Positions 1,231-26,422 of a stretch of DNA of 64,000 bases are shown here, piece after piece. Both the position numbers and the translations under genes were made by a program. The notes below the pieces were generated by a model, which was given only the letters and a program-made list of their open reading frames with translations, was not told the DNA's origin and did not search any database. Position 1 is the first letter of the stretch. Every line of letters starts with the position of its first letter. The stretch comes from a virus. Lineage: Duplodnaviria > Heunggongvirae > Uroviricota > Caudoviricetes. The stretch lies in IMG/VR virus record IMGVR_UViG_2851976983_000001, positions 36,474-100,473 of that record. One strand, given 5' to 3'.

Positions 1231-1260
1231 AAACCCGCCAACAGGCGGGTTTTCTTTATT
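1231..1260. terminator. bidirectional terminator between csp and the polymerase gene
   Basis: CCCGCC-AACA-GGCGGG hairpin flanked by an A-tract upstream and TTTTCTTTATT downstream. Confidence 0.6.
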
Positions 1261-4200
1261 ACTTATTTATTGTCTCCGCGATATCAGCCAGAATGGCCTC
1301 CAGTCGCTCTCCTTCTTCCGGTCGGAAGTACAGGATATTCGGGTTAAATCCGTAGAAGACGGTTGCATCAAGCTCTGGGAAGTACTCCTTACGACCAATC
1401 AGATCTGATGGTTTACTCTTATTGTTAAATAGTGCGGTTGAACGACTACCACACGTCAAAATGTAGGTTGGTCGTACAAGATTAATTTCTTCCCGCATAA
1501 AGTCTGTGAACTGGCCTATCTCGTCTTTGGTATAGTCTTTCTCTTTGTCCTTAACCTTCTTACAAACACCCGTGACATAAAGATCGCCCATGCGCAGATC
1601 TCCAACTGTCAGTAGTTTTGCCTTAAAGTCGTCGTATCCGTTCTCCATGAAGTAGCCGGTACGAGCGTCATTGCCGTTCGCATTGTCCAGAATGATCATG
1701 ATTTTGGGTTTAATACCAATAGTCGGGCGTATCAACTCCTCACCCAAGCCCATTTCAGCCGCCATACGTGTCATGAGTACGTTGATTTCGGCAGAACGCT
1801 TAGGATTCATTTCGAACGGACGTGATGCTTTAACAGCGTCAATGATGAGATTGCCCATCAGTTCAGCCTGGTCGCGCAGTCGTTCAGGATCAGTTGCTGG
1901 CAGACTGCCTGGCTCAATTGACGCAAAAGCCCCTACTTTATGAAGCGACTCGCGTACACGACTGTTACATGCACGCTTCTCGACCGCTTCATCGAATTGT
2001 GCCACTGACTCGAATTTGCCACCAACTTTCTCACGCGCACGCATAATTGCCTGACAACCATTTTCAGAACAGCCTTTCACAGCAGAGAATGGCGCATACA
2101 GTGCCTGACTGCCGTCTTCGAGTGTGCGGATCTCAATTCGGTTAGATGACACATTAACGTCTGGTGGCAATACGCGAATGCCATAGGTCAGCGCATCCTT
2201 CACCAGCCCCTGATGCTTATCCTCGCCCAGAATGGTGAGCGCAGCTGCGAAGAACTCAGCAGGGTAGTGCGTCTTTAGCCACATAGACTGATAACTGATT
2301 AAAGAATAAGCAACGGAGTGTGATTTATTGAACTGATAGGCTCCGTTTTTCTCAAATGCAGTCCATATCTCTTTTGCCTTCGTCTCAGACAGACCTGGAT
2401 GTGACGTTGTAACGCGCACAACTGGCATTGGCAGCTTCACTCCATGCTCCAACGCCTCTTCAACTGTCCTCAGAGTACCGTCCTCGCATTTAAAATGTTC
2501 TGCGCGATGAATCCGTTGTATTGCGCCATTTTCAAGCTCTACGTCGATCCACCCAGCTTGAGCCTGAATGACAAATTTCTCACCCATGCTCCTCATCTTT
2601 TCCATGTTCTTCTTACCGATTGCTGAACGCACACCATCCGCCTCGGCCATTGTGAAACCAGCAAGAAGCCTTGTTGCGTTCATCGTTTGTTCCTGATAGA
2701 GAATCACTCCATTTGTTTCAGAGGTCAGTTCATCCAAGACAGGATGTAGTGATGTAGGCGTCATAAATCCTTTCGCAACGGAAACATAGTCATCCAACAT
2801 GCCGGATTGAATCGGTCCCGGTCGGAAGAGGGCGGTAGTTGCGACAACGGTTTTGAAACTCATTGGCTCGATGCCACCGCCCAGATCTTTAAGCAGCTTA
2901 CGCATGGGGCCGGACTCCAGCTGGAATACGCCCTGCGTGTACCCTGCAGCGAACCCATCCAGAACCTTGCGATCGTCCAGTGGGATAGCGTCGAGATTGA
3001 TGTCTTCACCGGTACTCTCTTTGATGTAGCGTTTCGCGCTATCCAGAAGATCGAGTGTTGCCAGACCGAGAACGTCCAACTTAATCAGCCCCATCGCCTC
3101 GCAGTAACGTTTATCGAACGCAATACATCGAGCATTGCCACGCAGCTCGACGGGCGTGCGCTCTACTAATGGAACGCCAGCGACGATCATCCCCGCAGCG
3201 TGACGACCAAAACCACGCATCAGGCTTTGCAGCTTACACGCCGCTTTGAACGCTTCCGGGTTTTTCGTGGCGTATTTGTCCAGGCTGGCCAGTTGCTCGC
3301 GCAGCTCTTCCAGAGACAGGCTGTCGTCCTCCATATTCTTGAACTCTTTGGATACCGCCATATCCGCAGCATCGACACCGTAAATACGTGCAGTGTCACG
3401 CAGCGCAGATGCCGCGCCCAGATAGGTGAAGTTCGGAATGCCTGCAACGTAATCTTCGCCGTAGCGTTCATTCAGATACTCGATCACCTCATGGCGACGT
3501 GCCTGGCTGAAGTCCAAGTCCGCATCCGGCAAGTCGAGACGCTCAGGGTTGATGAAACGCTCAAACAGAAGACCGTGACGGATTGGGTCGACGTTGGTTA
3601 TGCCTATGCACCACGCCACCAGAGAACCGGCAGAGGAACCACGACCAGGCCCGACAGGAATGCCAGTTTCACGGCTGTGATTCATCAGATCGCGTACCAT
3701 CAGGAAGTAACCACAGAATCCCAGGCGAGTCAGCGTGTCCATTTCGTACTTTAGCCGCTCAACATAAACCCTGTTCTCAGAAGCAGGTGGTGTGTATCCA
3801 AACTCTTTTGTGGTAAGACGTTTACGCAGCCCTGCAACAGCCAGTTTCATCAGCGTTGCAGGTTCGTCGTCTGCCATCTTGGGCAGTGCTGGTGGCAATT
3901 CATGCCAGCGCCATGTGCAGGCATCGATAATGGAGTCCTGCGTTGTTGAGGCCATTGCAGCTGTTACCGGCACATCCATGCGAACGGAGAAGGCTTTAAG
4001 CGCCTCAAGGAGATGGCGACGACCATTGATGGCGTTATCTCGCTGGTGGGGGATACGCAGACGATGCGGCTGGTCGATTTTTATGTTGTTCGTAACCATG
4101 TGCGCAATGTCTTTAATGTCTGCATCGTCGATCGATTCGTAATAAGCGGGATAGAACGCCACTGGCTCTATTTTCAATGCGCTGGCGACTTTCATCGCCC

Positions 4201-4777
4201 GGACGTTAATCTGGTCGTAGAATGGGGTAGGGTGCGGATAAACCACACTATAGAAGTTGTCTTTTCCACCCGCTGTAATCAGTGTGCTTATGATTTTTGC
4301 AAAATCGTTGCGTTGGAACACGCTACCGATGTCGGAAGTAAGCAGGATGATGTTACCTTTGGCATATGTAGAAACCAACTGTTCGAGCGAGAGACGCGGT
4401 ACAAAGTAGAACTGTTCTCGTGTGTTGGCCGCCGTCATTAGTTCGCAGATGTCGCGATATCCTTTCTCATTTTTAATTAGAGCGGTAAACGAGTAGTTAC
4501 GTCCTCGCTCCAATGATTCCATACATCCCTTAGACTCTTTAGCAAGTTTAGCCCGGTGCTCGTATGTGGGATCATCAACGATGTTTAGTTTCACACCACA
4601 AATAACCGCCATGTCGTCACCAGCGGCACGTTGTAGTGGAATAACGCTCGCAATATTCATGCTATCTGCTGAAATTACAGCGGTGTAGCCAGCTTCTCTG
4701 GCAATCTTCACCGCGTTTTCTGCTTTTAAAGCCGACTCCCCAAGTGAGAAGTCAGTTCGAACCATCAGTGCCTTCAT
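1259..4777 (-). CDS. dnaE: DNA polymerase III alpha subunit (DnaE-type replicative polymerase)
   Basis: 1172 aa; N-terminal PHP domain; core GFCGYFLMVRDLMNHSRETGIPVGPGRGSSAGSLVAWCIGITNVDP typical of Pol III alpha. Confidence 0.9.
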   Translation of the reverse strand: MKALMVRTDFSLGESALKAENAVKIAREAGYTAVISADSMNIASVIPLQRAAGDDMAVICGVKLNIVDDPTYEHRAKLAKESKGCMESLERGRNYSFTALIKNEKGYRDICELMTAANTREQFYFVPRLSLEQLVSTYAKGNIILLTSDIGSVFQRNDFAKIISTLITAGGKDNFYSVVYPHPTPFYDQINVRAMKVASALKIEPVAFYPAYYESIDDADIKDIAHMVTNNIKIDQPHRLRIPHQRDNAINGRRHLLEALKAFSVRMDVPVTAAMASTTQDSIIDACTWRWHELPPALPKMADDEPATLMKLAVAGLRKRLTTKEFGYTPPASENRVYVERLKYEMDTLTRLGFCGYFLMVRDLMNHSRETGIPVGPGRGSSAGSLVAWCIGITNVDPIRHGLLFERFINPERLDLPDADLDFSQARRHEVIEYLNERYGEDYVAGIPNFTYLGAASALRDTARIYGVDAADMAVSKEFKNMEDDSLSLEELREQLASLDKYATKNPEAFKAACKLQSLMRGFGRHAAGMIVAGVPLVERTPVELRGNARCIAFDKRYCEAMGLIKLDVLGLATLDLLDSAKRYIKESTGEDINLDAIPLDDRKVLDGFAAGYTQGVFQLESGPMRKLLKDLGGGIEPMSFKTVVATTALFRPGPIQSGMLDDYVSVAKGFMTPTSLHPVLDELTSETNGVILYQEQTMNATRLLAGFTMAEADGVRSAIGKKNMEKMRSMGEKFVIQAQAGWIDVELENGAIQRIHRAEHFKCEDGTLRTVEEALEHGVKLPMPVVRVTTSHPGLSETKAKEIWTAFEKNGAYQFNKSHSVAYSLISYQSMWLKTHYPAEFFAAALTILGEDKHQGLVKDALTYGIRVLPPDVNVSSNRIEIRTLEDGSQALYAPFSAVKGCSENGCQAIMRAREKVGGKFESVAQFDEAVEKRACNSRVRESLHKVGAFASIEPGSLPATDPERLRDQAELMGNLIIDAVKASRPFEMNPKRSAEINVLMTRMAAEMGLGEELIRPTIGIKPKIMIILDNANGNDARTGYFMENGYDDFKAKLLTVGDLRMGDLYVTGVCKKVKDKEKDYTKDEIGQFTDFMREEINLVRPTYILTCGSRSTALFNNKSKPSDLIGRKEYFPELDATVFYGFNPNILYFRPEEGERLEAILADIAETINK

Positions 4778-4957: not shown

Positions 4958-6193
4958 TCAACCAAATATTTTTTGAACAACTTCACGAGCCGCTTGTGCA
5001 GAAGCTGAAGGGAGTTTGTTAATGAAAGAACGCTCAATACCTGTCACAAAGTCGCCTCGCATCATTCCAATCTTGGCCGACAACAAAAGTTCACGAGGGC
5101 CAATTGGCTGACTGATAAGGTGTTCTTCGTATCCATCGCGAACGATACCGGCAAACTTAACCATCTTTTCTGCGTATTCATCCACGATACCGGCATTTAT
5201 CAACATGTTGATCTCTGCCTCTTTGCTCATGTATTTCACATTCGAAACGATGCCAAAACGCGAAAAGTTCGCGGCGTTCTGGATGTTTGTACCCTGGTAC
5301 AAGCCGGTTTCATCACCAGATCCGTTCGTGTTGCCAGTGCCAATGAAAGCAAACCGTTCATGCGGAGTAATGCGACGCCATTCTGGAGTCGCCTCTTTGA
5401 TGACTAACGCTTCACCTTCCAGCACTGGCTGATACACGCCAAGAATTTGTGGAAACGCAAAGTCGTATTCATCCGCGAGGTAAACCCAGCCATGCTTCAT
5501 TGCGAGCGCAAGCAAGCCAGGCTCGAAATACGTAGAGCCATCACGCGCCAGAATTTGCCCCGTAACATGTGCCTCTTCCATTGATGCTGTATGTTGGGCA
5601 CGGATCAACGGACGATTGAGCAAAGCACATAGTTGTGTAGGCAATGACGATTTGCCTGTTCCTGCATGACCCCACAAATAGCCAGGTATGCCAAGTTCAA
5701 GCATCATGAAAATGTCTTTGATCAGTTCGAAGTCGCCATATACGTATCCCTTCTTCACTTCTGGAACGAACTCTGGAAACGGCGTATTGACGTTGACGCT
5801 AACCATGAGCGGCGTCCCACGTTTTGTTCCGAGTTCTTTCACCGTTACATTTAGCAGTTCGTGAGCTGCGACCAGATCTGTCTTGTACTCAACTGTGCCT
5901 GTGTAGCCTGGGCTACTGGTCACGCCAGATGATTTGGCCATTTCGCTTTTTTGCTCGGCACGTTTAGCTTGAATTGCATCAAGTGCCTTTTTCGATAGCG
6001 TTGGCTCATCTGGAAACTGTGTTGTGTACATTTTCAGTACGGTGTCAGGATCGGCATCTTTTACTGACTCAGGAATGCCCTCGCAATTACCATTGGCTAC
6101 ATGGGACTTAAAATAGTGAAATGATTTTCCGCACCACTTGCAAACAAGGTAATCAGAAGGATTTTTTTCATTTTGCAGTGCAGTAGTAGTCAT
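4958..6193 (-). CDS. AAA+ ATPase, CobS/MoxR-like
   Basis: Walker A GHAGTGKSS, Walker B-like VYLADEYD; N-terminal Cys cluster CKWCGK; immediately followed by a vWA partner. Confidence 0.6.
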   Translation of the reverse strand: MTTTALQNEKNPSDYLVCKWCGKSFHYFKSHVANGNCEGIPESVKDADPDTVLKMYTTQFPDEPTLSKKALDAIQAKRAEQKSEMAKSSGVTSSPGYTGTVEYKTDLVAAHELLNVTVKELGTKRGTPLMVSVNVNTPFPEFVPEVKKGYVYGDFELIKDIFMMLELGIPGYLWGHAGTGKSSLPTQLCALLNRPLIRAQHTASMEEAHVTGQILARDGSTYFEPGLLALAMKHGWVYLADEYDFAFPQILGVYQPVLEGEALVIKEATPEWRRITPHERFAFIGTGNTNGSGDETGLYQGTNIQNAANFSRFGIVSNVKYMSKEAEINMLINAGIVDEYAEKMVKFAGIVRDGYEEHLISQPIGPRELLLSAKIGMMRGDFVTGIERSFINKLPSASAQAAREVVQKIFG

Positions 6194-6288
6194 GCGTTTT
6201 TCCTTTGTTTTCTAATGAGCGTTCAACTTCTTATATAAATATATCATTATCTATCGTAAGTGGTTACTTATCGTTAAGGCTGTTTTGT

Positions 6289-10655: not shown

Positions 10656-10904
10656 TCAGAGGGGGCTGACGTATGCAGCCAGTTCTGTGTATCCGCCAAT
10701 CGGTTGACCATCGATCAGTACTTGGGGGATAGTCTCTACCGGTTTACCAACAATTTCACTTAGTTTTTCCTTGTCGATACCGGCAGTGGTGATGTCGATG
10801 TACTCATAATCACCGTAGCCATGTCCCTTTAGTTGCTTCGCCATCTCGACCGCACGTTTGCAGTATGAGCAATTATCGCGTCCGTAGATAACGACCTTCA
10901 TCAC
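10656..10904 (-). CDS. glutaredoxin / NrdH-like redoxin
   Basis: MKVVIYGRDNCSYCKRA with CxxC active site; ~80 aa. Confidence 0.75.
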   Translation of the reverse strand: MMKVVIYGRDNCSYCKRAVEMAKQLKGHGYGDYEYIDITTAGIDKEKLSEIVGKPVETIPQVLIDGQPIGGYTELAAYVSPL

Positions 10905-11266
10905 TTCACCTCGTGCAACTGCTGCTTGAGAAGATAGCCTTCCAGGGGCCAGATTTTGGCAATCGCGTTCTGGCGTGCAATTTTACGTCCGATCTCCGGA
11001 TCAAAGTTCTCCGGGCTGGCGCACGCAGACTCGCCGGTTACGGTGTAGCCGTTCTCCAGCACAAGAACGCAGAAGGTCAGCAGTTCGAGTGATTGCAGGG
11101 CCGGTTCAGGCTCTTCCTGCTTCAGCCACAACGGTGAGCTGCGATATCCGTCCGCGCCGGTAAAGTAAAACTCGCCTGAGATAACAGCTTCAATGCGTTC
11201 CGGGGTAACACGCGCGGCCGTTTTGCCTTTGGCCACAATCTCTTTTTCGATATCCATATCGGTCAT
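10901..11266 (-). CDS. hypothetical protein
   Basis: 121-aa ORF; stop overlaps the glutaredoxin start (ATGA coupling). Confidence 0.5.
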   Translation of the reverse strand: MTDMDIEKEIVAKGKTAARVTPERIEAVISGEFYFTGADGYRSSPLWLKQEEPEPALQSLELLTFCVLVLENGYTVTGESACASPENFDPEIGRKIARQNAIAKIWPLEGYLLKQQLHEVK

Positions 11267-11281
11267 TTTGGTTTCCTTACG

Positions 11282-11488
11282 TTAAAAACGAGCGATCCGA
11301 GCAAGAAGAATCAGGTCATACGCCTTCATCGTGTCCAGCTGCTTAATGAGGATGATGCGGTCGACATACAGCAGGCGAGCAAACACGTCGCCTGCAATGT
11401 ACGCCTCCTGTTCTTTGATGCGACCACACAGTTCTTCGTGTTCATCCATGACACGTTTCTGGTGTGGCAGGTACTCTTTGGTCATTGG
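11282..11488 (-). CDS. hypothetical small protein
   Basis: ORF 11282..11626 trimmed to the internal ATG (MTKEYLPHQ...) that begins just after the PhoH stop. Confidence 0.4.
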   Translation of the reverse strand, partial: PMTKEYLPHQKRVMDEHEELCGRIKEQEAYIAGDVFARLLYVDRIILIKQLDTMKAYDLILLARIARF

Positions 11489-11495
11489 CTTTCCC

Positions 11496-12269
11496 TTACT
11501 GATAGGCTTCCAGTGCGACTTTGCATAGCTCAGAACGCACGCAATCTTCGGTCGCAAACTCAATAAGGCCAACATGGGAGGAAGGTTTAAATCGCTCCAG
11601 TGCATCTTCCAGACCAGACTTAACATTGCTTGGCAGGTCGCATTGCGTCACATCTCCGTTCACAATGACGGTTACGTTCTCGCCCATACGGGTCAGGAAT
11701 ATTTTCATTTGTGACGCTGTAACGTTTTGCGCCTCATCGAGAATGACTACAGCGTTCTCGAACGTGCGCCCACGCATGTAAGCGAATGGGGCAATCTCTA
11801 CTTTGGCCACCTCTGGCTTTAAGCAATATTCAAGGAACGAGCCACCCAAACGCTTCTGTAACACGTCATAGACGGGACGGAAGAACGGAGCGAACTTCTC
11901 GCTCATGTCGCCCGGAAGGAAGCCCAGATCTTCTTCTGCTTGCAATACTGGACGCGTCACGATGATCTTCCCGACTTCCTTATCCAGCAGACGCTGCGCT
12001 GCGACGGCAGCTGCCAGGTAGGTCTTGCCGCAACCGGCTTCACCAGTGGCGAACGTCAGAGGTTTGGTATCGAGGGATATAAGATAGTGGGCCTGGGCCT
12101 CGTTACGTGCTTCGATGGGAGAGTTGTCACGTTTAGGTTTTGGTGGCAGAGCAGGGGCGGCAGCCAGCTCGTCAACGATGATTGTGTCAATTTCGTAGCC
12201 GTGGATGCGTGGTTTTGACTTCAGCGCCTGACGAGCTGCGCGACGCGCCTGTTTACGTTTGTTTCCCAT
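11496..12269 (-). CDS. phoH: PhoH-family ATPase
   Basis: Walker A GEAGCGKTYLA and conserved PhoH core; start refined to MGNKRK with AAAGGA RBS. Confidence 0.85.
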   Translation of the reverse strand: MGNKRKQARRAARQALKSKPRIHGYEIDTIIVDELAAAPALPPKPKRDNSPIEARNEAQAHYLISLDTKPLTFATGEAGCGKTYLAAAVAAQRLLDKEVGKIIVTRPVLQAEEDLGFLPGDMSEKFAPFFRPVYDVLQKRLGGSFLEYCLKPEVAKVEIAPFAYMRGRTFENAVVILDEAQNVTASQMKIFLTRMGENVTVIVNGDVTQCDLPSNVKSGLEDALERFKPSSHVGLIEFATEDCVRSELCKVALEAYQ

Positions 12270-12382
12270 ATTGAGTCCTTTCAAGTGAGTAACTGAAAGA
12301 ACTATACCGACAAATCATAGGTAAGTCATTACCTATTTTTTGTGTATTATCCCTCTACCATATAGAGGGATATCTTCATGAC

Positions 12383-13171
12383 TCACGGCAGTTTTGCTCT
12401 AATTTCGAGTAATTTTTGTGCCGTGACGCTGATGTCATAAGCCAGATCTTGGGTTTGGTTAATGATTCCGTAAAAGCGCTCAACCTCTTCAGGATAAAAA
12501 CGTCTGATATGGGGGATGTCGATATAATCATAATACCCAAGCCCACCCGCGGAATATTCTCTGAAAAGCGCCCAAAAGTTGTTCACTTTCCCGACCAACT
12601 CCATACGGATTGTTTCTAAAACAACATCATTGAAGCTGTAAAAGGGGTTATAGGCAATATTATCAAATGCGTAGAGTGGGTCGGTAATGTTGGTGCTTAC
12701 TTTTGCCCGGAACTGTTCGCTCTTCAGCATTTGGAGGTAGTTATAATTAAAAATATCAGTAATAGCTTTTAGAACACCGATGTCTCTATCTGAGTAATTG
12801 TTCTGGCTCACCTGGTGCGTCATTTGAAGCAGTAAAGATTGCCGAGTTTCGGCCAGTTGCTTCCAGTTTTTCAATTGCTCAACAGAATAGATAGTGTGGT
12901 CAGAGTCAATGAGTGCGCCATGTGAACGACACATCCATATACCGTTATCAATCGAGCTTCGCTGTTCTGGGGTCAAGCTAGGATCATATCTCGGCCCACC
13001 TGGCGCTGCTGCTGTAATATGGGCCGCAATACCATTATTAATCCTGCCGTTTGTATCACTGCTATCCGGGCCTACTGTTGTCTGGTTGCAGCCAAGAAAA
13101 GAGCATTTCCAGCCTACGCGTTCGGCCAGTGTTCGCTTCACCGATTGGGGAAAATCATCTCTGTTACTCAC
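12383..13171 (-). CDS. HNH endonuclease-like domain protein with uncharacterised C-terminal domain
   Basis: N-terminal WKCSFLGCN...AAHI...NGIWMCRSHGALID (Cys pairs plus His/Asn spacing of HNH nucleases); the remaining ~150 aa match nothing I recognise. Confidence 0.5.
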   Translation of the reverse strand: MSNRDDFPQSVKRTLAERVGWKCSFLGCNQTTVGPDSSDTNGRINNGIAAHITAAAPGGPRYDPSLTPEQRSSIDNGIWMCRSHGALIDSDHTIYSVEQLKNWKQLAETRQSLLLQMTHQVSQNNYSDRDIGVLKAITDIFNYNYLQMLKSEQFRAKVSTNITDPLYAFDNIAYNPFYSFNDVVLETIRMELVGKVNNFWALFREYSAGGLGYYDYIDIPHIRRFYPEEVERFYGIINQTQDLAYDISVTAQKLLEIRAKLP

Positions 13172-13211
13172 GATTAACCTCGCTGTGTTTAAACAATCTT
13201 ATGGTTATTTG

Positions 13212-13781
13212 TTAGTGGCGTTTGTCTTCTTCCAGACGCGCCGTTTTTAAGTGTTTGTCGGTAAAGGTAAGTAACGTTACGCCCTCATCTTTATTCATGA
13301 AACCGGCACCGTTTATCATCATGATCAGGCGCTCTTTGCCGCGGAATACCTCATAATACTTTCCCGCTGCACATGACATTGTCTTGGCGCACTCCAACCC
13401 ATTCAAGGCTGTTTCATCAAATACCTGATCTTTAGTGGCAACCGGCTTCCCGTATTCTTTCGTAAGCATTTCGTCGAGCTGCATGAAGGTATACTTGCCG
13501 ACGTTGGTAGTCATGCTTGACTCAACTTTGCCATCAATCAATCCACCGGTGGTATGCGGTTCCTTACCTTCAGCCGCTGCTTTATCGAACAAAGCGAAGG
13601 CTTCGATGTTTGGGGTTCGTTTTTCAAAGTGGGTTTTGTACTGGCTCTCAAGGGAGTTTTTGTCCTGACCGATTAGTGTAATTTTATCGACTTCAGACTC
13701 GTTGCATCCCGTGAGTGTGAACGCGATTATTAGAGAGGTGAGAATAGTGAAGTTGCGCTTTTTCATTGATGCTATCTCCAT
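13212..13781 (-). CDS. lipoprotein
   Basis: MKKRNFTILTSLIIAFTLTGC signal peptide with LTGC lipobox. Confidence 0.6.
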   Translation of the reverse strand: MEIASMKKRNFTILTSLIIAFTLTGCNESEVDKITLIGQDKNSLESQYKTHFEKRTPNIEAFALFDKAAAEGKEPHTTGGLIDGKVESSMTTNVGKYTFMQLDEMLTKEYGKPVATKDQVFDETALNGLECAKTMSCAAGKYYEVFRGKERLIMMINGAGFMNKDEGVTLLTFTDKHLKTARLEEDKRH

Positions 13782-13844
13782 GCAAACAGCTACGTTCCTA
13801 CTACGGGTGGCACTTCAGATAAATACTTTAGACCTTGGCAGATA

Positions 13845-14573
13845 TTAACCGATGCTGTTTTGATACCTGCGAACTGCCGCATCCAATTCACTAACATATC
13901 GATTAAACTCACCCACAACATACTCCAAAAATTGATCGTCCATGAGGACACCGTTGAAGAAATTTACTGTTATACCGGCGTTTTCATTCTTTGCACGATT
14001 GATTGCGCGGATATCTCGCTTCTGTGTTTCTGACTTCTTTGCTTTTGATTTTAAAAGGTTATGATAGTTTTCGGCAACACCATCGTTGTGAGCCATGATA
14101 TTTCTGATGGCCGCCAGATGAGCAATATCCCTGATGCCTTTGCCTCCTATGGTTCCAGTAAGTCGCTTATGGCAATCTTCGACCGTTTTGAATCTTTTGT
14201 CTGTCACCTCGCCCGACAATCTATCCATGACCTCAAGGCATTCAACCATGCGGTGTTCAAATAACCCGAACATCGTCAGAAATGCCGAACGACGAGTAAG
14301 TTGTGAAATCAAGTGCTTGTATTCCGATTTGACTTCATCAGCATCGAATCCAGAACATGAACCGCAGGTAAAATACTGTACCGTATATAGATGAATTTTA
14401 CCTTCATCGTCCTCATGCTCATCGTCATACTCACCCTCCGAGACTGCGCCCGGAAGATCGGCATCACTAAGAGCGCGAGCAATGTTTACTTCAGCCTGTT
14501 CAGCTAGCATCTTCATGATTGTAATTGATTTCGTGGCTCCCCAAAGTTGTAGATTAATAAATATCTTTGCCAT
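13845..14573 (-). CDS. hypothetical protein with HEPN-like Rx4H motif
   Basis: IAHLAAIRNIMAHND contains R-x4-H; acidic N-terminal stretch; last gene upstream of the tRNA region. Confidence 0.3.
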   Translation of the reverse strand: MAKIFINLQLWGATKSITIMKMLAEQAEVNIARALSDADLPGAVSEGEYDDEHEDDEGKIHLYTVQYFTCGSCSGFDADEVKSEYKHLISQLTRRSAFLTMFGLFEHRMVECLEVMDRLSGEVTDKRFKTVEDCHKRLTGTIGGKGIRDIAHLAAIRNIMAHNDGVAENYHNLLKSKAKKSETQKRDIRAINRAKNENAGITVNFFNGVLMDDQFLEYVVGEFNRYVSELDAAVRRYQNSIG

Positions 14574-15320: not shown

Positions 15321-15395
15321 TGGCGATGGTGGGTGGACTCGAACCACCGACCAGTTGATTAACAGTCAACCGCTCTACCACTGAGCTACACCATC
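15321..15395 (-). tRNA. tRNA-Asn (anticodon GUU)
   Basis: Minus-strand sequence GATGGTG-TA-GCTC-AGTGGTA-GAGC-G-GTTGA-CTGTTAA-TCAAC-TGGTC-GGTGG-TTCGAGT-CCACC-CACCATC-G-CCA folds as a cloverleaf with encoded CCA; 75 nt. Confidence 0.85.
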
Positions 15396-16810: not shown

Positions 16811-16970
16811 CCTTAATCTCCTTCAGTGTGTACGTGATATCTACAATGCGGTTAATGCGGCCGCGCCTCTGCATGACACCGGCTTTTACGTAATCGTTGA
16901 TGCAGCTGGACGTAACCAGACTGCCGATAACAATGCCGACGACCAAAAATACAATCATCCAGCCGAGCAT
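16794..16970 (-). CDS. small membrane protein (58 aa) missing from the ORF track
   Basis: Hand translation MLGWMIVFLVVGIVIGSLVTSSCINDYVKAGVMQRRGRINRIVDITYTLKEIKDDHVK; ATG overlaps the ligase stop. Confidence 0.4.
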   Translation of the reverse strand: MLGWMIVFLVVGIVIGSLVTSSCINDYVKAGVMQRRGRINRIVDITYTLKEIKDDHVK

Positions 16971-18292
16971 CAGTCTTTATCTCCAATACGGTCTTCGGTA
17001 TCTCGCAGACATTTCGGCCACTTCAGACGTGGGTGGCGTAAGCTACCGTCCGGCGTTTTCTCATGGCAGTGAACCTCGACGATGCGTCCACGATACTTCT
17101 CCTGATTGTTCCAGATCTCATCCAGGTACTTATGCTTGATACCGCTGGCACGAACGATGACGCCGTTCTCCAGACGAATCACTATCTTGCCCAGCGTATG
17201 CGCAAAGCCAGAGTCCGGGTCGCCTGGCTCGAAGTCGATGATTTCACCGTCTTCGGAATCCTCGTCTTTCAACTTCCACCAGCTGCGGGTACGCTTGAAC
17301 TCGTAAACAGAATCCGGATCTTTGCCCATCTCCCCCTCTTCGTTCTCGTCCAGGCGCTTCATGAAGCGTTCGATAAAGTCTCCATGGCTATGGATGATGT
17401 AGAACGGATGCAGGTGGATATCTTGCGCGTAATCTTCCCCGCAAGTGTTGCGGAACAACGCCACCAGCATAGCCAGGCGCTCTTTCAGCTTCATGCCGGT
17501 CTTCAGGTACTCTTTGCTTTTTGCCTGAGCACGCCACTCCGGTAAGAAGAAATCGAAGATGTGGTAAACGGCACCAATGGCTTTCACGTTCTTCTTGCGA
17601 AGCGCCGATACGGACTGGTTGAACGTACCTGCAGTACCCTCACCATCGAAGAAGATGTGCTTGAACCCGGAGAGTCTGCCTCGCTCCAGCATGGCCGGTT
17701 TAAGGTGATCGAGTGACGTAATCGGATTTCCGGTACGCGTCAGGAAGTTCACCTCTTCCTCGTCAACGATGACTTCGCAGATAACCCGGAGACCATCGAG
17801 TTTGAGGCTGCCGATCATTGGCCACTTGGCCTTTGGATTTGGTTTAAATGGGTATTTGTCGCCTTTCTCCTTGTACGGAGACGCCAGCTGTACCTCAAAC
17901 TTCGGAATTGGGTTTTCGAACACCTTGTTGCACAGGCTGATGCCGACGCCGGCTTTCGGATCTTTCAGCAGGAAGCGACGAAACACGTCCTGCCCGTCAG
18001 CGCACATTGAGGCAACGAGTGATTCGACAGCAGTAATGGCCGCGTTCCCGGTCAGTTCGCGCGCCGCCAGCTTCTCCAGCAGCTCGACTACCTTCTGGTC
18101 GATGGGTACGGAAGTATCGAGTGGCTCGACCACTTTGTACTTCTTCACACCGAATCGAATGAATGGGTTGAGCATTAGCGAGACCATGCTCTGCTCAAAT
18201 TCATCAAGGTTGGCCAGCGCCTCTTTTTTGGCGTTGGTTCCCATCGTTTTTATGGCATCCAGCTTGTGCTTTAGGGCGATCAGTTTTTCCAT
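16970..18292 (-). CDS. ATP-dependent DNA ligase
   Basis: Adenylation motif I SLKLDGLR (KxDGxR); 440 aa. Confidence 0.85.
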   Translation of the reverse strand: MEKLIALKHKLDAIKTMGTNAKKEALANLDEFEQSMVSLMLNPFIRFGVKKYKVVEPLDTSVPIDQKVVELLEKLAARELTGNAAITAVESLVASMCADGQDVFRRFLLKDPKAGVGISLCNKVFENPIPKFEVQLASPYKEKGDKYPFKPNPKAKWPMIGSLKLDGLRVICEVIVDEEEVNFLTRTGNPITSLDHLKPAMLERGRLSGFKHIFFDGEGTAGTFNQSVSALRKKNVKAIGAVYHIFDFFLPEWRAQAKSKEYLKTGMKLKERLAMLVALFRNTCGEDYAQDIHLHPFYIIHSHGDFIERFMKRLDENEEGEMGKDPDSVYEFKRTRSWWKLKDEDSEDGEIIDFEPGDPDSGFAHTLGKIVIRLENGVIVRASGIKHKYLDEIWNNQEKYRGRIVEVHCHEKTPDGSLRHPRLKWPKCLRDTEDRIGDKD

Positions 18293-19850: not shown

Positions 19851-20903
19851 ATGACAACGTTGTCCAAAAACGTGATGCAACACAGGAAGGTATTGAAAGA
19901 AACTGGTTTGGCGTTTGCCAAATCTATACCGCTTGTTGGACCTCATATTGAGGCAGCGGAAAAAATGTTCACGTTGTTCTCAGAGATAAATGCGACGACT
20001 TGTCGTGATCGATTCAACCGTTACATTATGGGCATTGGTGAAATTTGCGACGATGAGGTCGATATCTCAAGAGAACACTTTTCGGCGTTAGTCAAAAAGC
20101 TCGTGCTTGATGATGAAGACAAGAAAACAGAATACTACATTCGCTTGACGGTAAGCCTAGCCCGCAGCAGCCTTAACGACGATGAAAAACTATTTTTTAT
20201 CCACATACTGAGTGGGTTAACCTGCTTTGATATTGAATATGCGCGCAAACTTTACATCACAACAAGCTCGCCAATAAAAGGCTATAAATCAACTGTATTA
20301 GCCCAAGTTAGCCTCACATCACAAAAAAGTGGAATGGCTCTGAGATCGCTAAATAAGCTCATAACCTCGGGTCTCGTCTACGAAGACAGGGCTGGCGAGA
20401 TCCAAGCGAACCCCATGTTCAAATTAACAGATGAACTTGAGCGTCTTTTAGGATTTATTTTTCACAAGGATGATTTGGAGCCTGAAGCTTTATCTATTGA
20501 GCCAAAGGAAGAATACGACGTCATTATCATTGAAAGCAGCGAAATCTATAGTGGGGCATATCCAAACAGCATTTATCGTAGTTTGAAAGCCGCCGGCATT
20601 AAGGTTTGCATAGAAAAAAATGAAGACTGCATTACAACCAAGCTGGCAAAGTACTTCATCTCAGTCAAAACAGGGAGCGGACTCAATGGTGAAGGTGAGT
20701 GGATTGAATTTGGGCAAATTTACGTCCTCAAACGCCTAGATTCAAGCAGTAAACGTTTCTATGAAAATGAGCACAGTGAGACAGTCAGTATCAGCAATTT
20801 TAAACCTAAGGATAACGACCAAACATATGATGCAAGTTTGCTAAATATAGCACTAAATAATATCGCTGCGTTTGTCCTGAACCGTCTGTCTCCCACAACT
20901 TAA
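19851..20903 (+). CDS. hypothetical protein; orphan plus-strand AT-rich gene
   Basis: 350-aa ORF opposite to the surrounding minus-strand replication genes; no motif I recognise. Confidence 0.6.
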   Translation: MTTLSKNVMQHRKVLKETGLAFAKSIPLVGPHIEAAEKMFTLFSEINATTCRDRFNRYIMGIGEICDDEVDISREHFSALVKKLVLDDEDKKTEYYIRLTVSLARSSLNDDEKLFFIHILSGLTCFDIEYARKLYITTSSPIKGYKSTVLAQVSLTSQKSGMALRSLNKLITSGLVYEDRAGEIQANPMFKLTDELERLLGFIFHKDDLEPEALSIEPKEEYDVIIIESSEIYSGAYPNSIYRSLKAAGIKVCIEKNEDCITTKLAKYFISVKTGSGLNGEGEWIEFGQIYVLKRLDSSSKRFYENEHSETVSISNFKPKDNDQTYDASLLNIALNNIAAFVLNRLSPTT

Positions 20904-20904
20904 A

Positions 20905-22086
20905 CTACACGAGTGACTCGATACCGAGCACTTTGCATTTTAACTCCAGCTGTTTGGAGTAAGGCTTGGCACGATAATAGGCTTTGAGGATCTGCTCTGG
21001 CGTCGCGTCGCCGGGGTCGAGACCTTCTTCGCCCAGACAGGCCACTTTGACATTTAGTCCGATGCTGGTGAGGCGTTTGGCCGCCGACATGGTGTTGCGG
21101 ATCGCTTGCTTCTCGCTATCCCACATCATGATGACGTTGCGTAATCCACGCGCCTTGAGCGTCAGGAACGCGCCCAACTGATCTTCAGCGTCCTCATTCA
21201 TATTTCCGGACAAGTGCATCCCGAACGTGCCAATTGGCTCTACATAATCCCTCAGCGTCTTTTCGTCGAAGATGGCTCGCTTCACGCCCATTACGTCAAA
21301 TGCCCCTTCACACACAACGACTGTTTGTTTCCCGACTGCGTTGTGGCCGTTGTAGAGAAACTTACCCGACGCCGGCAGCTGCATAGGGAAGAGATAACGG
21401 CGTTCTGCTGCACCGGTAATGTCACGCCCCTGGAAGGTCTTCATCACGCCATCCAGATCGTAAACCGGTATCAGGATGCGCATATCAAACACCTGCCCTT
21501 TGACCTGGTCTGTGTACGGATCGACGTATGCGTGCTTGCCTTCGACGCAGTAACGCAGATCAAAGTATTTGGCCAGATCCGGGGAGATATGGCGCTCCAC
21601 CAGATAATCAGGAAGACGACCGTCAATGGGGAGTTCGTAATGTCGAGGGAGAGCTACTGGCCCTTCGAGTTCAACCTTGCTGGCCAGCACGACCTCTTCC
21701 TTCTTCGGCGCCCATCCTTGTGAGATCAGCGCGTTCTGCACATATTCCTCGAACTGTCGTCGTGATTTACCGCTGTAGTGCTTGAGGAAGACCAGCTTAT
21801 TGAACTGAATCTCTTCGGGATGATCACCAGCAAAGCATTTGCCGACGCCACTGGTCAGATTGAAATATACCTTCCAGTTGGAGCTGCCACATACCGGACA
21901 CTCCTTGATATTCACTTCACGACCGCGAGCACTCACGCCTCCACGTCGATAAACGATACCTTCAGTGTCCAACCATTGTTCAAAATCTAATTCGGTAATT
22001 AGCTCTTTCAGCTCGCTCACGATAATTCCACTTTTAATAGGCAATATTGTGACCAACCTAAATGTTGATATAACATAAAGGCTCAT
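20905..22086 (-). CDS. DNA primase (zinc-ribbon + TOPRIM)
   Basis: CPVCGSS...CFAGDH zinc-binding motif and TOPRIM VVVCEGAFD; start uncertain (ATG at 22086 or GTG near 22021; the ORF-track start 22158 lies beyond a hairpin). Confidence 0.7.
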   Translation of the reverse strand: MSLYVISTFRLVTILPIKSGIIVSELKELITELDFEQWLDTEGIVYRRGGVSARGREVNIKECPVCGSSNWKVYFNLTSGVGKCFAGDHPEEIQFNKLVFLKHYSGKSRRQFEEYVQNALISQGWAPKKEEVVLASKVELEGPVALPRHYELPIDGRLPDYLVERHISPDLAKYFDLRYCVEGKHAYVDPYTDQVKGQVFDMRILIPVYDLDGVMKTFQGRDITGAAERRYLFPMQLPASGKFLYNGHNAVGKQTVVVCEGAFDVMGVKRAIFDEKTLRDYVEPIGTFGMHLSGNMNEDAEDQLGAFLTLKARGLRNVIMMWDSEKQAIRNTMSAAKRLTSIGLNVKVACLGEEGLDPGDATPEQILKAYYRAKPYSKQLELKCKVLGIESLV

Positions 22087-22167
22087 GTGTTTTTCTTTTG
22101 TGGTTTGGCAAAAGAAAAGTTGTTTCACCAATGAATCAAGCGTGGAGGTGTTCTCCACGCTTATTTT

Positions 22168-23508
22168 TTAGGTAACGTCTAAGATTCGCTCAATGAAGCG
22201 CATTTGTTCGAGTTTTTGTTTAACGCGAATGCTGATCCCTCCCTGCTGGTTACGTGAACCAGCAAAGTAGAGACGAGCCTCTCCTTTCGCTTCTTCTTCT
22301 TCGGTTTTGTTGATCGTTATTACCAGGTCAGCAATACGTACTTTTTCGATGTTGTCGGCGGCGTGCATCATTGTGGCAACTTCTGACGCGCCACCTTCAC
22401 GGTTTGTCTGCGATGCCGTGATTCCAGCAACGTTATGTTTGTCATAAAGAGCACGTAAATCGGTGTAGATACTACGAATGTTGGCGCGATCATCACGAAG
22501 GTCATAACTGGCACGCATCAAATCTGCGTAGTCGACAACAACCATGTCAGGCACCATGCCGTTGGCTTTCATGCTGTTAAGCATACGGTCCAGATCTGCC
22601 GGTGACATACTTCCTGACGGACGCTCAACCACCCACAAACTACCAATCCCCTTCGTGGCTCCCAACTCTGCCAACTTACGATGAACCTCATCGCGCCGTT
22701 CCACCAGCTTGGACATTTCCGTCTCCGACAATCTTGCATCAAAACGGTCGGATAAAATGGTAGTGTGAACCTCCAGCGAGAGATACAGAACATTGTAGCC
22801 AGCAAGCGTTGCGTTTATGGAAAACTCACCCATTGCGGTCGATTTACCGGATTTAGCGAACCCCATGAAGAGCACCATTTCACGCTTCGCCCAGCCTTTT
22901 TGGTACAGCAACCTATCGAGCAGAGGGAGTCCAGTTGTAATGCTGTTTGGCACATACTCCTCTGAAGCCTCATATTCACGCGCTTTCAATCGCTCACTTG
23001 CGGAGGTGTAGTAGTCATAGATTCCGGTCGCTTCGTTCGATCCAATCTGCTGAACCTTGGCCATGATTGCCATCGCCCCCTGAAAGTCGCCTTTCTCTTT
23101 CAGTTCAGCAGCCTTAATCAGAGCATCATCAAACGCTACGCTTTTTGCGAAGGTTGATACCTGGTCAACCATGTACGAGGTATCGGACAATTTTTCTGCA
23201 AGGATGCGCTTAAACGCAGCAACAACATCGGCGAATAGTTCCTCACGGATAGTCTTATCGCGTTTCGCACGCTTAAGCATATCCAGAATTGCAGATGAAG
23301 AGGGCGCGCTCTTGTACATACGGTAATAGCCCGAAACCATATTAACCAATATGGCATTGGCCGCATTGGCAAATTGGCTAGGCACAACCAGATCTCCCGC
23401 ACGAGTAAGAAACTCGTGATCACGACAAAAATATGCCGTCAGTCTGTTCTGGAAATCTTCATCAAACTCTTCGGACAGCCCGCGTCCTGTATGGCAAAGT
23501 TCGGTCAT
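22168..23508 (-). CDS. DnaB-type replicative helicase
   Basis: Walker A GFAKSGKST and RecA-like C-terminal core; 446 aa. Confidence 0.85.
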   Translation of the reverse strand: MTELCHTGRGLSEEFDEDFQNRLTAYFCRDHEFLTRAGDLVVPSQFANAANAILVNMVSGYYRMYKSAPSSSAILDMLKRAKRDKTIREELFADVVAAFKRILAEKLSDTSYMVDQVSTFAKSVAFDDALIKAAELKEKGDFQGAMAIMAKVQQIGSNEATGIYDYYTSASERLKAREYEASEEYVPNSITTGLPLLDRLLYQKGWAKREMVLFMGFAKSGKSTAMGEFSINATLAGYNVLYLSLEVHTTILSDRFDARLSETEMSKLVERRDEVHRKLAELGATKGIGSLWVVERPSGSMSPADLDRMLNSMKANGMVPDMVVVDYADLMRASYDLRDDRANIRSIYTDLRALYDKHNVAGITASQTNREGGASEVATMMHAADNIEKVRIADLVITINKTEEEEAKGEARLYFAGSRNQQGGISIRVKQKLEQMRFIERILDVT

Positions 23509-23551
23509 GTGCTTTCCTTTGTTTTTTAAACAAATTGTTTTCTAGTATTAG

Positions 23552-24292
23552 TTAATTAGATAGGGGATCAATAAACCGCCGTGCTTCTTCCAGTTCTTCT
23601 GGAAAGTGGGCGGAAATAAGGCGCTCTGGAACGATTTCCATTAGCCAGATAGCGGAGAAAATTGCGCGTATGCGCTTGCTGCGGGGGATGGTGCGTAAAC
23701 GCTCCAGAATCCACTCAAAATAGCTTTCCTGGATCGGGTTGAACTGCATGTCTCCCATATGCTTAAAGCTAACCAGAGAGTCATCCAGACGGGTTGTTGC
23801 GCGTCTGGCTAATTTCTCTTCAAATATCTCAATCAGTTCTGGCTGCCATAAATGCTGTGGGCGCGGCAGCTTGTCCCACAGCCGTCGTGCAGCTGCGGAA
23901 AGAACGGTGGAGATAAAGTAGTCGTATGAGCAGCAATAGCGGTCAGCAAACTGGCGTGCTTTCCATAGAGACGTTTTATTGGCAGTCGACAACTCCTGAT
24001 AAGGCAGGCGTTTTAACCCGGTGGTGAACGGAGCTGTTTCAAAGTGTTCTCGACCGTGCGTCAGCATGATATTTGAGTACTGACGTTTGTATGCCTCCGT
24101 AAAAAGACAGGTGGCCATGAGAGGATGCATGTCGCGGTAATCAAACCACTTCGTCTCGAAGAGTTCAGCCTCGTCTTTACAGCGCGACAAACCAATGTTT
24201 TCAGCGACCCACTTGTCCATAACAGCGGTATTCCACTCTGTCATGAAGTCGTACTGGTCGTTGTCGATGGTATCGAAAAAGATTTGGCTCAT
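23552..24292 (-). CDS. hypothetical protein (possible helicase loader by position)
   Basis: 246-aa ORF immediately upstream of the helicase; GATAAGTAAGTAA motif ~20 nt upstream of the ATG. Confidence 0.45.
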   Translation of the reverse strand: MSQIFFDTIDNDQYDFMTEWNTAVMDKWVAENIGLSRCKDEAELFETKWFDYRDMHPLMATCLFTEAYKRQYSNIMLTHGREHFETAPFTTGLKRLPYQELSTANKTSLWKARQFADRYCCSYDYFISTVLSAAARRLWDKLPRPQHLWQPELIEIFEEKLARRATTRLDDSLVSFKHMGDMQFNPIQESYFEWILERLRTIPRSKRIRAIFSAIWLMEIVPERLISAHFPEELEEARRFIDPLSN

Positions 24293-24408
24293 GTGGCTCG
24301 CCTGGTAGGTAGTTACTTACTTATCACAATGAGCGAATGATAGCGACTGGTGGCAGTTTTTGGAAGTGGAAACGGAAGGGAGTTGTTCTGGTGGTGTCTT
24401 TTAAAAGA

Positions 24409-24463
24409 CCTGCTTCCGTATATATTTAATAAGTTACTTATTATTTATATATACAGAAGCAGG
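24409..24463. repeat. 55-bp palindromic element, copy A
   Basis: CCTGCTTCCGTATATATTTAATAAGTTACTTATTATTTATATATACAGAAGCAGG; near-identical copy at 61865..61919. Confidence 0.8.
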
Positions 24464-24574
24464 CATAACTTGTCGTCTTAGACGCCCAGAAGCTCTACAC
24501 TTTGAGCCTGTTAAATTGATTAAAAACTTATGTGTAAAATAGAACGCATTAGTCAGTAGCTAAGAGATGCAATA

Positions 24575-25342
24575 ATGGACGATTTATCGGTATACGCGAG
24601 ATCATTGGATAAGGCTAAATACTATGTTTACTGTCTCTATGATACAGAAGACAAGATGAAAAGACCGTTTTACATAGGAAAAGGCAAATCGACTCGTTGT
24701 CTCGATCACATCAAGTATCCCGATGACTCTCCCAAATCCATGCGGATCAAAGAACTTTTGGCTAATAAAAAATTAGGCATAGATATACTTCGTCATGGTA
24801 TGGATGAAACCACAGCCAAACTTGTTGAGGCGACATGCATCGACCTTATGGGGGTCGGAGAGCTTACGAATAAGGTTCGAGGAAGTGGTTCCATGATGGG
24901 CAGAATATCACTGGACGCCTACCATCACTTAGTGCTGCAAGAGGAAACTGAAATTGCTCCTGAGCACGCCGGTCTTGCCTTCCTGCTAAACAGCACCTAC
25001 AAGTCAGGAATGTCCGCTCTGGCATTATATGAAGCTACGCGTGGCGTATGGGCAAAGGTTCCAAGAGACGAGAATCTCAAATATGCCTACGCTACATATG
25101 GTGGGCTGATAATGGAAGTTTATCAGATTGAATGCTGGGTCAAAGCCGGTTCTCAGCAGTACTTTACAAGGGATATAGCTCTTGGCCCCGACACAAAACG
25201 TTATGAATTTGTTGGCAGAATAGCCGATGAGCATATTAGAAAACTGTATGTAGGCAAATTAATCAAGAAGCCACCAAGCTACGGTAGCCCTTTTGTGAAG
25301 GTTGGGGTGGTTAGGACTGAACATAGTGTTAGCGCGGCATAA
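24575..25342 (+). CDS. GIY-YIG nuclease-domain protein (homing-endonuclease-like)
   Basis: N-terminal YYVYCLYD...PFYIGKGKSTRCLDH resembles the GIY-(x10-13)-YIG...R core; plus strand, own terminator. Confidence 0.45.
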   Translation: MDDLSVYARSLDKAKYYVYCLYDTEDKMKRPFYIGKGKSTRCLDHIKYPDDSPKSMRIKELLANKKLGIDILRHGMDETTAKLVEATCIDLMGVGELTNKVRGSGSMMGRISLDAYHHLVLQEETEIAPEHAGLAFLLNSTYKSGMSALALYEATRGVWAKVPRDENLKYAYATYGGLIMEVYQIECWVKAGSQQYFTRDIALGPDTKRYEFVGRIADEHIRKLYVGKLIKKPPSYGSPFVKVGVVRTEHSVSAA

Positions 25343-25359
25343 AGCTGACACAGTAGTTA

Positions 25360-25396
25360 TGCATTGGCGCAACGTACGCGCCAATGCATGATTTTT
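25360..25396 (+). terminator. rho-independent terminator of the GIY-YIG gene
   Basis: TGCATTGGCGC-AACGTAC-GCGCCAATGCA followed by TGATTTTT. Confidence 0.6.
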
Positions 25397-25754
25397 AACC
25401 TTTTTTCATCAACTCTCGTTTGATTTCATCGGTACGCATCGTGACATCGGCAGCTGTGATCGCCTCGTTAAGTTTCACGATGTCCTCGATTTCCTGCGGT
25501 GACTTCTCTGCCAGATGGAAAATGGCTGCGCGAATCACGTCTGAACGGGTGAACTTCTCGAAGCGAGGGATGAACTTCATCATCTCCAGCAGTTCGAAGT
25601 ATTCGTCCTCCAGTGACATTGTGCGGCTTTTAATTTTCTCTTTGCCACGAGTCGGGCGTCCCTGTGGTCTGACTGGTTGGCGCAAAGGAGTTGTGTTCTT
25701 AGCCGGTGCATCAGGCTCTTTGCGCTTTGCTAGGTCACCCATTTTCATGGACAT
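25395..25754 (-). CDS. small partition/centromere-binding protein candidate (ParG/ParB-like)
   Basis: 119 aa, basic N-terminus; translationally coupled to the ParA gene (ATGA overlap). Confidence 0.4.
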   Translation of the reverse strand: MSMKMGDLAKRKEPDAPAKNTTPLRQPVRPQGRPTRGKEKIKSRTMSLEDEYFELLEMMKFIPRFEKFTRSDVIRAAIFHLAEKSPQEIEDIVKLNEAITAADVTMRTDEIKRELMKKG

Positions 25755-26422
25755 TATTCTTCTTCCTCCAGACTCAACAGATAATCTACAAATTCTTCAA
25801 ACTCGGCTTCCGCCTTTTTGTCGCGCTCGCTACCGGTCATTTCAAAGATAGAACGACCAGACTCTTCCGCATCATCATAGACGTTGCGGTTATATAGATT
25901 GACTGGCGCAGACTCGATGCCAAACGTCTCAACAATCTCTTTAGCCGCCAGAATGCGAGACACTTGTGATGGCAAAGCCGGGCACTGGTTCATGACCGCG
26001 CGGACCTTCACTTTATCGTTTACATTACGAACATTGTCGATAATAGGATCGATGTCACGCAGAGATTTCAAATCACGACGCTTAGGACGAAGCGGGATAA
26101 TGATAACGTCGGCCATCAGCATCGCTTGTCGCTGAATTTCGGAGTCAAAGCCACCAGCATCTACCACTACATACTCAGCTCTACCCTGAAGCGATTTTAG
26201 GTGCTTAATGATGTCATCCTGAACGTATGCAAAAGGAATCAGCTCAAGGTCTTCGTTCTGTCGACGGTCTTCACACCAGCTCGTTGTCGTGCGCTGAATA
26301 TCTATATCGGTGATATAAACCTTCTTCTTCTTTTTGACTTTCAGGCAAACGGCAATTTGCTGGGCAACGGTGGATTTGCCAGGCCCGCCCTTTGTGCCGC
26401 CAACCACAAAGATCTTGGTCAT
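25754..26422 (-). CDS. parA: ParA-family partition ATPase
   Basis: Deviant Walker A VGGTKGGPGKST; 222 aa, typical of small type Ib ParA. Confidence 0.8.
   Translation of the reverse strand: MTKIFVVGGTKGGPGKSTVAQQIAVCLKVKKKKKVYITDIDIQRTTTSWCEDRRQNEDLELIPFAYVQDDIIKHLKSLQGRAEYVVVDAGGFDSEIQRQAMLMADVIIIPLRPKRRDLKSLRDIDPIIDNVRNVNDKVKVRAVMNQCPALPSQVSRILAAKEIVETFGIESAPVNLYNRNVYDDAEESGRSIFEMTGSERDKKAEAEFEEFVDYLLSLEEEE

Follow-up and report, generated by a model that had tools for sequence, protein, structure and literature searches.

A 64-kb window of viral DNA very probably belonging to a phage-plasmid of the SSU5 supergroup eroded by insertion sequences

Gene content and affiliation of the window

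The stretch of DNA analysed here (64,000 nucleotides of the IMG/VR virus record IMGVR_UViG_2851976983_000001, positions 36,474 to 100,473; hereafter the window) is almost wholly coding, mostly on the minus strand, with a G+C content of about 45-53% and a single tRNA gene for asparagine. Replication genes, an integrase and a ParA partition gene lie in its left part, and lysis, tail, head and packaging genes in its right part. We are highly confident that it represents about 64 kb of a phage-plasmid of the SSU5 supergroup, in a copy that has been eroded by insertion sequences (IS) and most probably survives only as a plasmid, without infectious particles. A first-pass annotation of the same DNA had tentatively proposed a phage-plasmid like SSU5 and pHCM2; DNA identity, shared genes, plasmid location and a RepA/iteron replicon bear this out.

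Positions 1259-26000, nearly all of the region flagged in that annotation, served as the megablast query, and the identities to plasmids, pHCM2 and SSU5 given in this paragraph refer to it. The region is 100% identical to two plasmids of E. coli that come from human stool (Wardha, India), p500465_152 (CP025897.1) and p503829_100 (NZ_CP025870.1). The latter is circular, comprises 100,470 bp and is typed as 'non-mobilizable, rep_cluster_488'; over the full length of the window it differs by one mismatch and one 3-bp indel located in the DnaB-like gene. Altogether, 842 plasmid records match (these two near-identical ones and 840 further records from Klebsiella, Escherichia, Enterobacter, Yersinia, Salmonella and Citrobacter), together with 12 phage records. 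The phages that match best are CMS-2020a, Cyrano and PhiR41_1 of Escherichia (91-94%), while plasmid pHCM2 of S. Typhi CT18 (NC_003385.1) reaches 89.5% identity at 81% coverage and Salmonella phage SSU5 86.6% identity at 61% coverage. A search of the literature and its supplementary tables for the plasmid accessions gave no relevant match. The type of element is already known and its sequence already deposited, and naming the window as SSU5-type is a correct annotation and not a discovery. The supergroup comprises the SSU5_pHCM2, pKpn, pSLy3 and pMT1 groups, which are mostly IncFIB-typed and predicted to be Siphoviridae, and in which the phage genes are conserved while the plasmid genes vary (Pfeifer et al. 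2021, PMC7969092). The virion is of the siphovirus type, and the sizes of the types lie within 85-134 kb (Table 1 of PMC12977533), a range that includes p503829_100, and the commonest host of the pSLy3 type is E. coli (PMC12977533).

Gene content was compared by searching the 60 non-IS genes of the window against the complete SSU5 genome with tblastn, accepting homologues at ≥35% identity and ≥50% coverage. Homologues were found for 45 of the 60 genes, with a mean amino acid identity of 88%, and these include all replication, partition, lysis, tail and head genes. The 15 genes for which none passed the thresholds are cspG, the genes of a block at 8496-15277, a GIY-YIG nuclease gene, one unknown gene and two tail-fibre fragments. 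Both the nucleotide comparison and the gene-content comparison place the element in the supergroup of SSU5 and pHCM2.

The gene order of the window is shared with SSU5 (JQ965645 / NC_018843) and pHCM2, as are the DnaE/DnaB/primase/ligase set, ParA with its partner, the lambda-like tail, and the head and lysis genes. SSU5 differs in that it lacks the block with integrase, glutaredoxin and PhoH and also the PD-T4-3 gene, has intact J and fibre genes, and possesses genes, annotated as NrdAB, thymidylate synthase and DHFR, which this plasmid does not have. The C-terminus of its tail fibre is also unlike that of the window, suggesting a different host range. Phages of the E. coli branch (Cyrano, OV696614; CMS-2020a; PhiR41_1) are 92-98% identical in DNA across the replication, tail and head modules, and Cyrano has its integrase, repressor-like regulator, glutaredoxin and ParA at the same places as the window. 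However, the J and fibre genes of Cyrano are contiguous (4728 and 4026 bp, respectively), it has three tRNAs where the window has one, a KacT toxin-antitoxin pair stands where the window has two other genes (26599-27719), and its RepA is only 49% identical.

Modules of differing affinity do stand side by side in this DNA, whose architecture the first-pass annotation had called mosaic: a ligase and a gp32 protein of T4 affinity, a lambda-type M-L-K-I-J series and a ParF-like ParA adjoin one another, as might be expected if T4-like and lambda-like phages and a plasmid had recently been joined, or mis-assembled, into a one-off chimera. The same order and content nevertheless recur in the 842 plasmid records and 12 phage genomes, covering six or more genera, and independent complete assemblies are collinear. 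The collinearity with SSU5, Cyrano and pHCM2 already refutes a recent chimera, which we regard as extremely unlikely; the mosaic is instead a conserved architecture of the whole lineage.

Replicon, partition genes and the integrase region

Integration with att sites, or the lack of a replicon, had been named in the first-pass annotation as observations that would speak against a phage-plasmid, and neither describes the element. Positions 16000-27000 match 264 of 5426 complete E. coli genomes, where 531 of the 534 matching places are on plasmids, and all of the 251 places that match the integrase and regulator segment are on plasmids of about 100-120 kb. Moreover, the identical plasmid p503829_100 possesses a RepA of the Rep3_N (Rep_3) family (3.9e-9, above the cut-off), located outside the window about 7.5 kb to the left of position 1. 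The repA gene is flanked by at least nine iterons (GTATGCTGTCAGCGGT), two upstream and seven downstream, and RepA and the iterons together are a classical iteron replicon. The gene spans the origin of the plasmid record and is hence missing from its gene table; it was located by means of the annotated RepA of Cyrano. Inside the window, no Rep initiator was found among the open reading frames (ORFs) at 18873-19667, 19851-20903, 23552-24292 and 26599-27351 by Pfam, NCBIfam and PDB sequence searches, and a scan of 18-27 kb for iterons or centromere repeats gave only chance-level two-copy repeats and a palindrome (24409-24463).

The partition gene parA (25754-26422, minus strand) encodes a small Walker-type protein of 222 aa without an N-terminal helix-turn-helix (HTH) domain. 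It matches the NCBIfam model ParA_partition (2.3e-33) with 115.5 bits, below the curated cut-off of 180 bits. Its best solved relatives are ParF (4dzz) and ParA (5u1g) of TP228, both aligned over nearly the full length; for instance, residues 9-199 correspond to residues 8-189 of the 206 residues of ParF. The earlier designation as type Ib is therefore upheld for ParA, given this near end-to-end alignment. Directly downstream, a gene for a presumed centromere-binding partner of 119 aa (25395-25754, minus strand) abuts parA and is co-conserved with it; the two proteins are 92-93% identical to SSU5_033/034, the partner itself being 93% identical to SSU5_034. A single-sequence AlphaFold model of the partner begins with a disordered N-terminus, basic and rich in proline, and continues with three helices, and the sequence shows a weak, sub-threshold match to the aCcr1 family, whose members we take to be ribbon-helix-helix proteins. 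The type Ib archetype, ParF-ParG of TP228, likewise has a small downstream partner with a basic and disordered N-terminal tail, and the modelled partner would fit a ParG-like centromere-binding protein. It differs from ParG in that its 119 aa include an extra long C-terminal helix, and the locus differs in that no centromere repeats were found upstream.

The integrase is a tyrosine recombinase (9341-10444, minus strand; Pfam Phage_integrase) that is absent from SSU5. It stands next to a gene for an HTH regulator (8960-9346, plus strand), which shows a weak match to Pfam HTH_19 (7.8e-4, below the cut-off) and is called a 'putative repressor' in Cyrano. Further along lies an accessory group on the minus strand (10656..14573) consisting of genes for glutaredoxin (10656-10904; Pfam Glutaredoxin, 1.3e-10), a Gp49-family protein, PhoH (11496-12284; Pfam PhoH, 1.5e-73), a nuclease-like protein and two hypothetical proteins. 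The tRNA-Asn (GTT) gene follows at 15321..15395 (minus strand; ARAGORN and Rfam tRNA) and has the same position in SSU5 and Cyrano. The whole block of integrase, glutaredoxin and PhoH (8496-15277, 6.8 kb) is not present in SSU5, which runs directly from CobT to the tRNA-Asn.

An integrative prophage or a genomic island, with its tyrosine integrase and with the adjacent tRNA-Asn gene as attachment site, could also give such an arrangement. The integrase does lie 5 kb from a tRNA gene in the window, and of the 534 matching places in E. coli genomes, 3 are on the chromosome. However, the integrase region itself is plasmid-borne at every one of its 251 places, the tRNA is the phage's own and has the same position in SSU5, which lacks the integrase, no att-like direct repeat of the tRNA was found flanking the block, and the identical records are circular plasmids. 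We therefore consider an integrative element very improbable. The narrower idea that only the block at 8496-15277 is an island inserted at the tRNA-Asn gene was likewise rejected, as it has no att-like repeat and is widespread and mosaic across the supergroup: 726 plasmid records, and Cyrano as well, have it in mosaic form. This wide distribution indicates that the block is 'shell' content of the supergroup and not a foreign island.

Insertion sequences in the tail genes and the proposed lifestyle

Two tail genes of this copy are interrupted. The lesions were defined from junction sequences and by alignment with phage Cyrano, which is virion-derived and has both genes contiguous. The tail-tip and host-specificity gene J (36206..44208, minus strand) is split into an N-terminal part (42535-44208) and a C-terminal part (36206-39313), leaving ORFs of 557 and 1035 aa that are separated by 3.27 kb of IS DNA; the Pfam domains FNIII-A_GpJ and Phage-tail_3 are in one fragment and Phage_Tail_Tip in the other. 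The inserted DNA is an IS100 (39284-42550) with target duplication ACGAT, inside which an IS629-like element of the IS3 family is nested (41147-42455), and an ALIL frameshift pseudoknot detected with Rfam (41481-41597) belongs to this nested element. Among 72,556 plasmid records of PLSDB, the junction between J and IS100 occurs only in the two Wardha sister plasmids. The side tail fibre gene (30620..36113, minus strand; PHROG tail-fibre hits) is similarly split by an IS2 (32013-33343) with the 5-bp target duplication CTGGT. The siphovirus structural, packaging and lysis modules are all present as genes, and it is J and the side tail fibre, interrupted by IS, that have probably lost their function.

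IS activity also extends beyond the window. A second IS100 in NZ_CP025870.1 (93,727-95,692) lies exactly at the breakpoints of a stretch that is missing compared with SSU5 (SSU5 positions 65,936-83,315; 17.4 kb), annotated there with NrdA/NrdB, thymidylate synthase, DHFR, exonucleases and methyltransferases. The same plasmid, p503829_100, also possesses metG and apbC, which are host-derived in appearance. In its sister p500465_152, about 50 kb of extra DNA stand between two IS2 copies (record positions 45624-96348) at the fibre site (window 32013-33344), and this plasmid is typed in PLSDB as IncFIB and rep_cluster_488, with MPF_F genes. The insert resembles a cointegrate, formed through IS2, between the phage-plasmid and DNA of an F-type plasmid, although the 50-kb insert may instead be an assembly artefact.

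In lambda-type tails, J is indispensable for assembling the tip and for adsorption, and its split therefore suggests that the element has ceased to be an infectious phage and is maintained as a plasmid. Virion induction and packaging are predicted to be negative because J is disrupted, and this plasmid-borne copy is probably defective as a phage. One may ask whether it could still be a fully functional and inducible SSU5-like phage-plasmid that tolerates its IS, for instance if the J fragments or a helper prophage supplied the tail-tip function. All other genes for structure, lysis and replication are intact, with 82-99% identity to SSU5, and the side tail fibre is dispensable in lambda. Against this stand the division of the essential J gene into two ORFs with IS DNA between them and the additional absence of the 17-kb region with the annotated NrdAB, thymidylate synthase and DHFR genes, and we regard a functional phage as unlikely.

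Members of the SSU5 supergroup are temperate siphoviruses of Enterobacteriaceae, whose lysogenic state is a low-copy circular plasmid of about 100 kb that does not integrate. During lysogeny of the present element, RepA and the iterons would drive theta replication while ParA and the 119-aa partner would segregate the plasmid copies, roles that are carried over from iteron plasmids and type Ib partition systems. During lytic growth, the element would use its own replisome of DnaE, DnaB, primase, ligase and single-stranded DNA-binding protein (SSB). The tyrosine recombinase most likely acts in multimer resolution or genome circularisation, as Cre does for P1, rather than in integration, because the integrase was never found in a chromosomal context. 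From what is established for P1, the element and P1 would be alike in their way of life, with a RepA replicon between iterons, active partition, and a tyrosine recombinase used for the plasmid state and not for integration. However, P1 is a myovirus, unrelated to the element, whose ParAB system is of type Ia and which has no DnaE of its own, and the likeness is one of analogy and not of homology. In the present copy, the IS100 and IS629-like elements in J, the IS2 in the fibre gene and the deletion at the second IS100 would have left the element to survive as a plasmid only.

Several observations weigh against this reading of a plasmid-borne, defective phage or against parts of it. The plasmid replicon lies outside the window, which by itself shows partition only. 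Within the partition locus, a Foldseek comparison of the AlphaFold model of the 119-aa partner with the PDB gave only matches of E > 3 and did not reveal a ribbon-helix-helix fold, the annotators of Cyrano label the same protein a RelE/ParE-like toxin, and no convincing centromere repeat array was seen upstream of parA (26423-26598). The role of the integrase is deduced indirectly, and SSU5 without an integrase is still a working phage-plasmid. Finally, the non-inducibility of this copy is read from its sequence, and a co-resident lambdoid prophage could in principle complement the J fragments.

The window and p500465_152 may capture a phage-plasmid in the course of turning into an ordinary plasmid, with adsorption genes hit by IS, nucleotide-metabolism genes lost and F-type DNA acquired between IS2 copies; we put this forward tentatively, at slightly less than even chances. 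If true, the IncFIB/MPF_F DNA in the sister strain would offer a horizontal route to a crippled phage, by conjugation or mobilisation. The IS decay of the phage half and the IS2-flanked F-type fusion would then be a modest illustration of the already proposed conversion of phage-plasmids to plasmids. SSU5-type phage-plasmids are common in clinical Enterobacteriaceae, where they are often mislabelled as cryptic plasmids, and they bear resistance and defence genes (bioRxiv 10.1101/2025.09.12.675607).

Replication, structural and cargo genes

The genes named in the first-pass annotation (DnaE, DnaB, primase, ligase, glutaredoxin, PhoH, ParA and integrase) were all recovered with Pfam and PHROGs, and its description of the replication genes as T4-like applies to some of them. 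The ligase and a gp32-type SSB conform to it, but the polymerase is not of the B-family gp43 type: its domain hits identify a bacterial C-family polymerase III alpha subunit with a PHP domain. This DnaE-type replicase (1259..4777, minus strand) matches Pfam DNA_pol3_alpha (3.6e-73) along with the finger, HHH_6 and PHP domains and is 93.7% identical in amino acids to SSU5_052. The ATP-dependent DNA ligase (16970..18292, minus strand; Pfam DNA_ligase_A_M) is 98.9% identical in amino acids to SSU5_044, and its best solved relative is 6dt1 (1.6e-24), which we take to be the T4 DNA ligase. The DnaG-like primase (20905-22158, minus strand) is below threshold in Pfam and clear in PHROGs (phrog_47 'DNA primase', 3.3e-63), with 94% amino acid identity to SSU5, while the DnaB-like helicase (22168-23508, minus strand) matches Pfam DnaB_C (3.7e-13) and is 93% identical in amino acids to SSU5. 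The gp32-family SSB (PF08804, 1.7e-66) is encoded in the identical plasmid just left of the window, where genes annotated as RecA and, in the Cyrano record, as UvsY are also found; these two labels are record annotations only.

Directly downstream of dnaE stands a conserved pair shared with SSU5, composed of a CobS-like AAA_5 ATPase (4958-6193, minus strand; Pfam AAA_5, 2.1e-15) and a CobT/VWA protein (6289-8397, minus strand; Pfam CobT_C, 2.4e-82). The pair (4958-8397) is annotated in relatives as 'porphyrin/cobalamin biosynthesis', but more probably it acts as a chaperone pair of the MoxR/VWA type. Upstream of the DnaB operon, an intergenic, AT-rich and near-perfect palindrome of 55 bp (24409-24463; DNA-fold z-score -6.0) is kept in SSU5 and may serve as operator, origin element or terminator.

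A lambda-type order of tail genes had been placed by the first-pass annotation within 1259-26422. The series V-G/T-H-M-L-K-I-J is indeed present, but it is found at 36206-53376 (minus strand). Apart from J, the module (44220..53376, minus strand) comprises I, K, L, M, the tape measure protein H, T, G, a major tail protein V with an Ig domain and a tail terminator. It is supported by Pfam matches to Phage_tail_L (1.3e-96), Phage_min_tail (M; 2.6e-35), NLPC_P60 and Prok-JAB (K), TMP_3 and Tape_meas_lam_C (H) and Big_2 (V). These lambda families, including FNIII-A_GpJ and Phage_Tail_Tip, stand in lambda order, and at the end of G the -1 frame stays open. The head and packaging genes (53255..61748, minus strand) encode neck/connector proteins, an Ig decoration protein, the major capsid protein, a DUF6651 protein, the portal, the large terminase and a putative small terminase, assigned from Pfam (Terminase_6N, capsid families and Big_2), RefSeq annotation and 83-96% amino acid identity to SSU5. 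The linear records of SSU5 and Cyrano both begin at window position ~61,880, a short way upstream of the gene for the putative small terminase (61116-61748), which suggests either a defined packaging start or a common annotation convention. A lysis cassette of holin, endolysin and Rz spanin (28092..29386, minus strand) is recognised from phrog_873 (endolysin) and the annotations of Cyrano and SSU5, with 82-96% amino acid identity.

A GIY-YIG nuclease gene, regarded as accessory cargo (24575..25342, plus strand; Pfam LEM-3_GIY-YIG), lies between the replication genes and parA, has no SSU5 homologue and is a candidate anti-phage defence gene of the PD-T4-3 type (PADLOC, 1.3e-23), a system reported in SSU5-group elements of E. 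coli and Shigella (bioRxiv 10.1101/2025.09.12.675607). In the variable block, a protein of 262 aa (12383-13171, minus strand) has no Pfam hit, while, in PADLOC, about 125 residues at its N-terminus match defence effectors in their endonuclease domains (PDC-M68A, CBASS-type effector endonucleases and Shedu SduA, down to 1.6e-23), making a further defence gene possible on the basis of these matches. At the left end of the window (562-980, plus strand), the cold-shock gene cspG, for which SSU5 has no homologue, is accompanied by a full-length 5' untranslated region of the cspA thermoregulator type (Rfam RF01766, 185.7 bits). Between parA and the lysis cassette, two genes on the minus strand (26599-27719; phrog_3307 and phrog_2594) have distant SSU5 homologues (33-37%); this slot, which is occupied by the KacT-type pair in Cyrano, is a variable hotspot of 'plasmid cargo'.

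A last cluster adjoins the packaging genes at the right end of the window (62220-64000, minus strand) and continues into positions 1-2756 of NZ_CP025870.1, with 98-99% amino acid identity to SSU5 for the two genes compared. It consists of a protein of 296 aa, an ABC-type ATPase with weak PADLOC matches to mad3/mad8, two proteins with ParB/Srx N-terminal domains and a divergent DEAD-box helicase. From position 63107 onward, the two ParB/Srx-domain genes (so annotated, with a ParB_N domain in the second) and the ABC-type ATPase begin. The cluster may represent a second partition system or take part in DNA modification or packaging.

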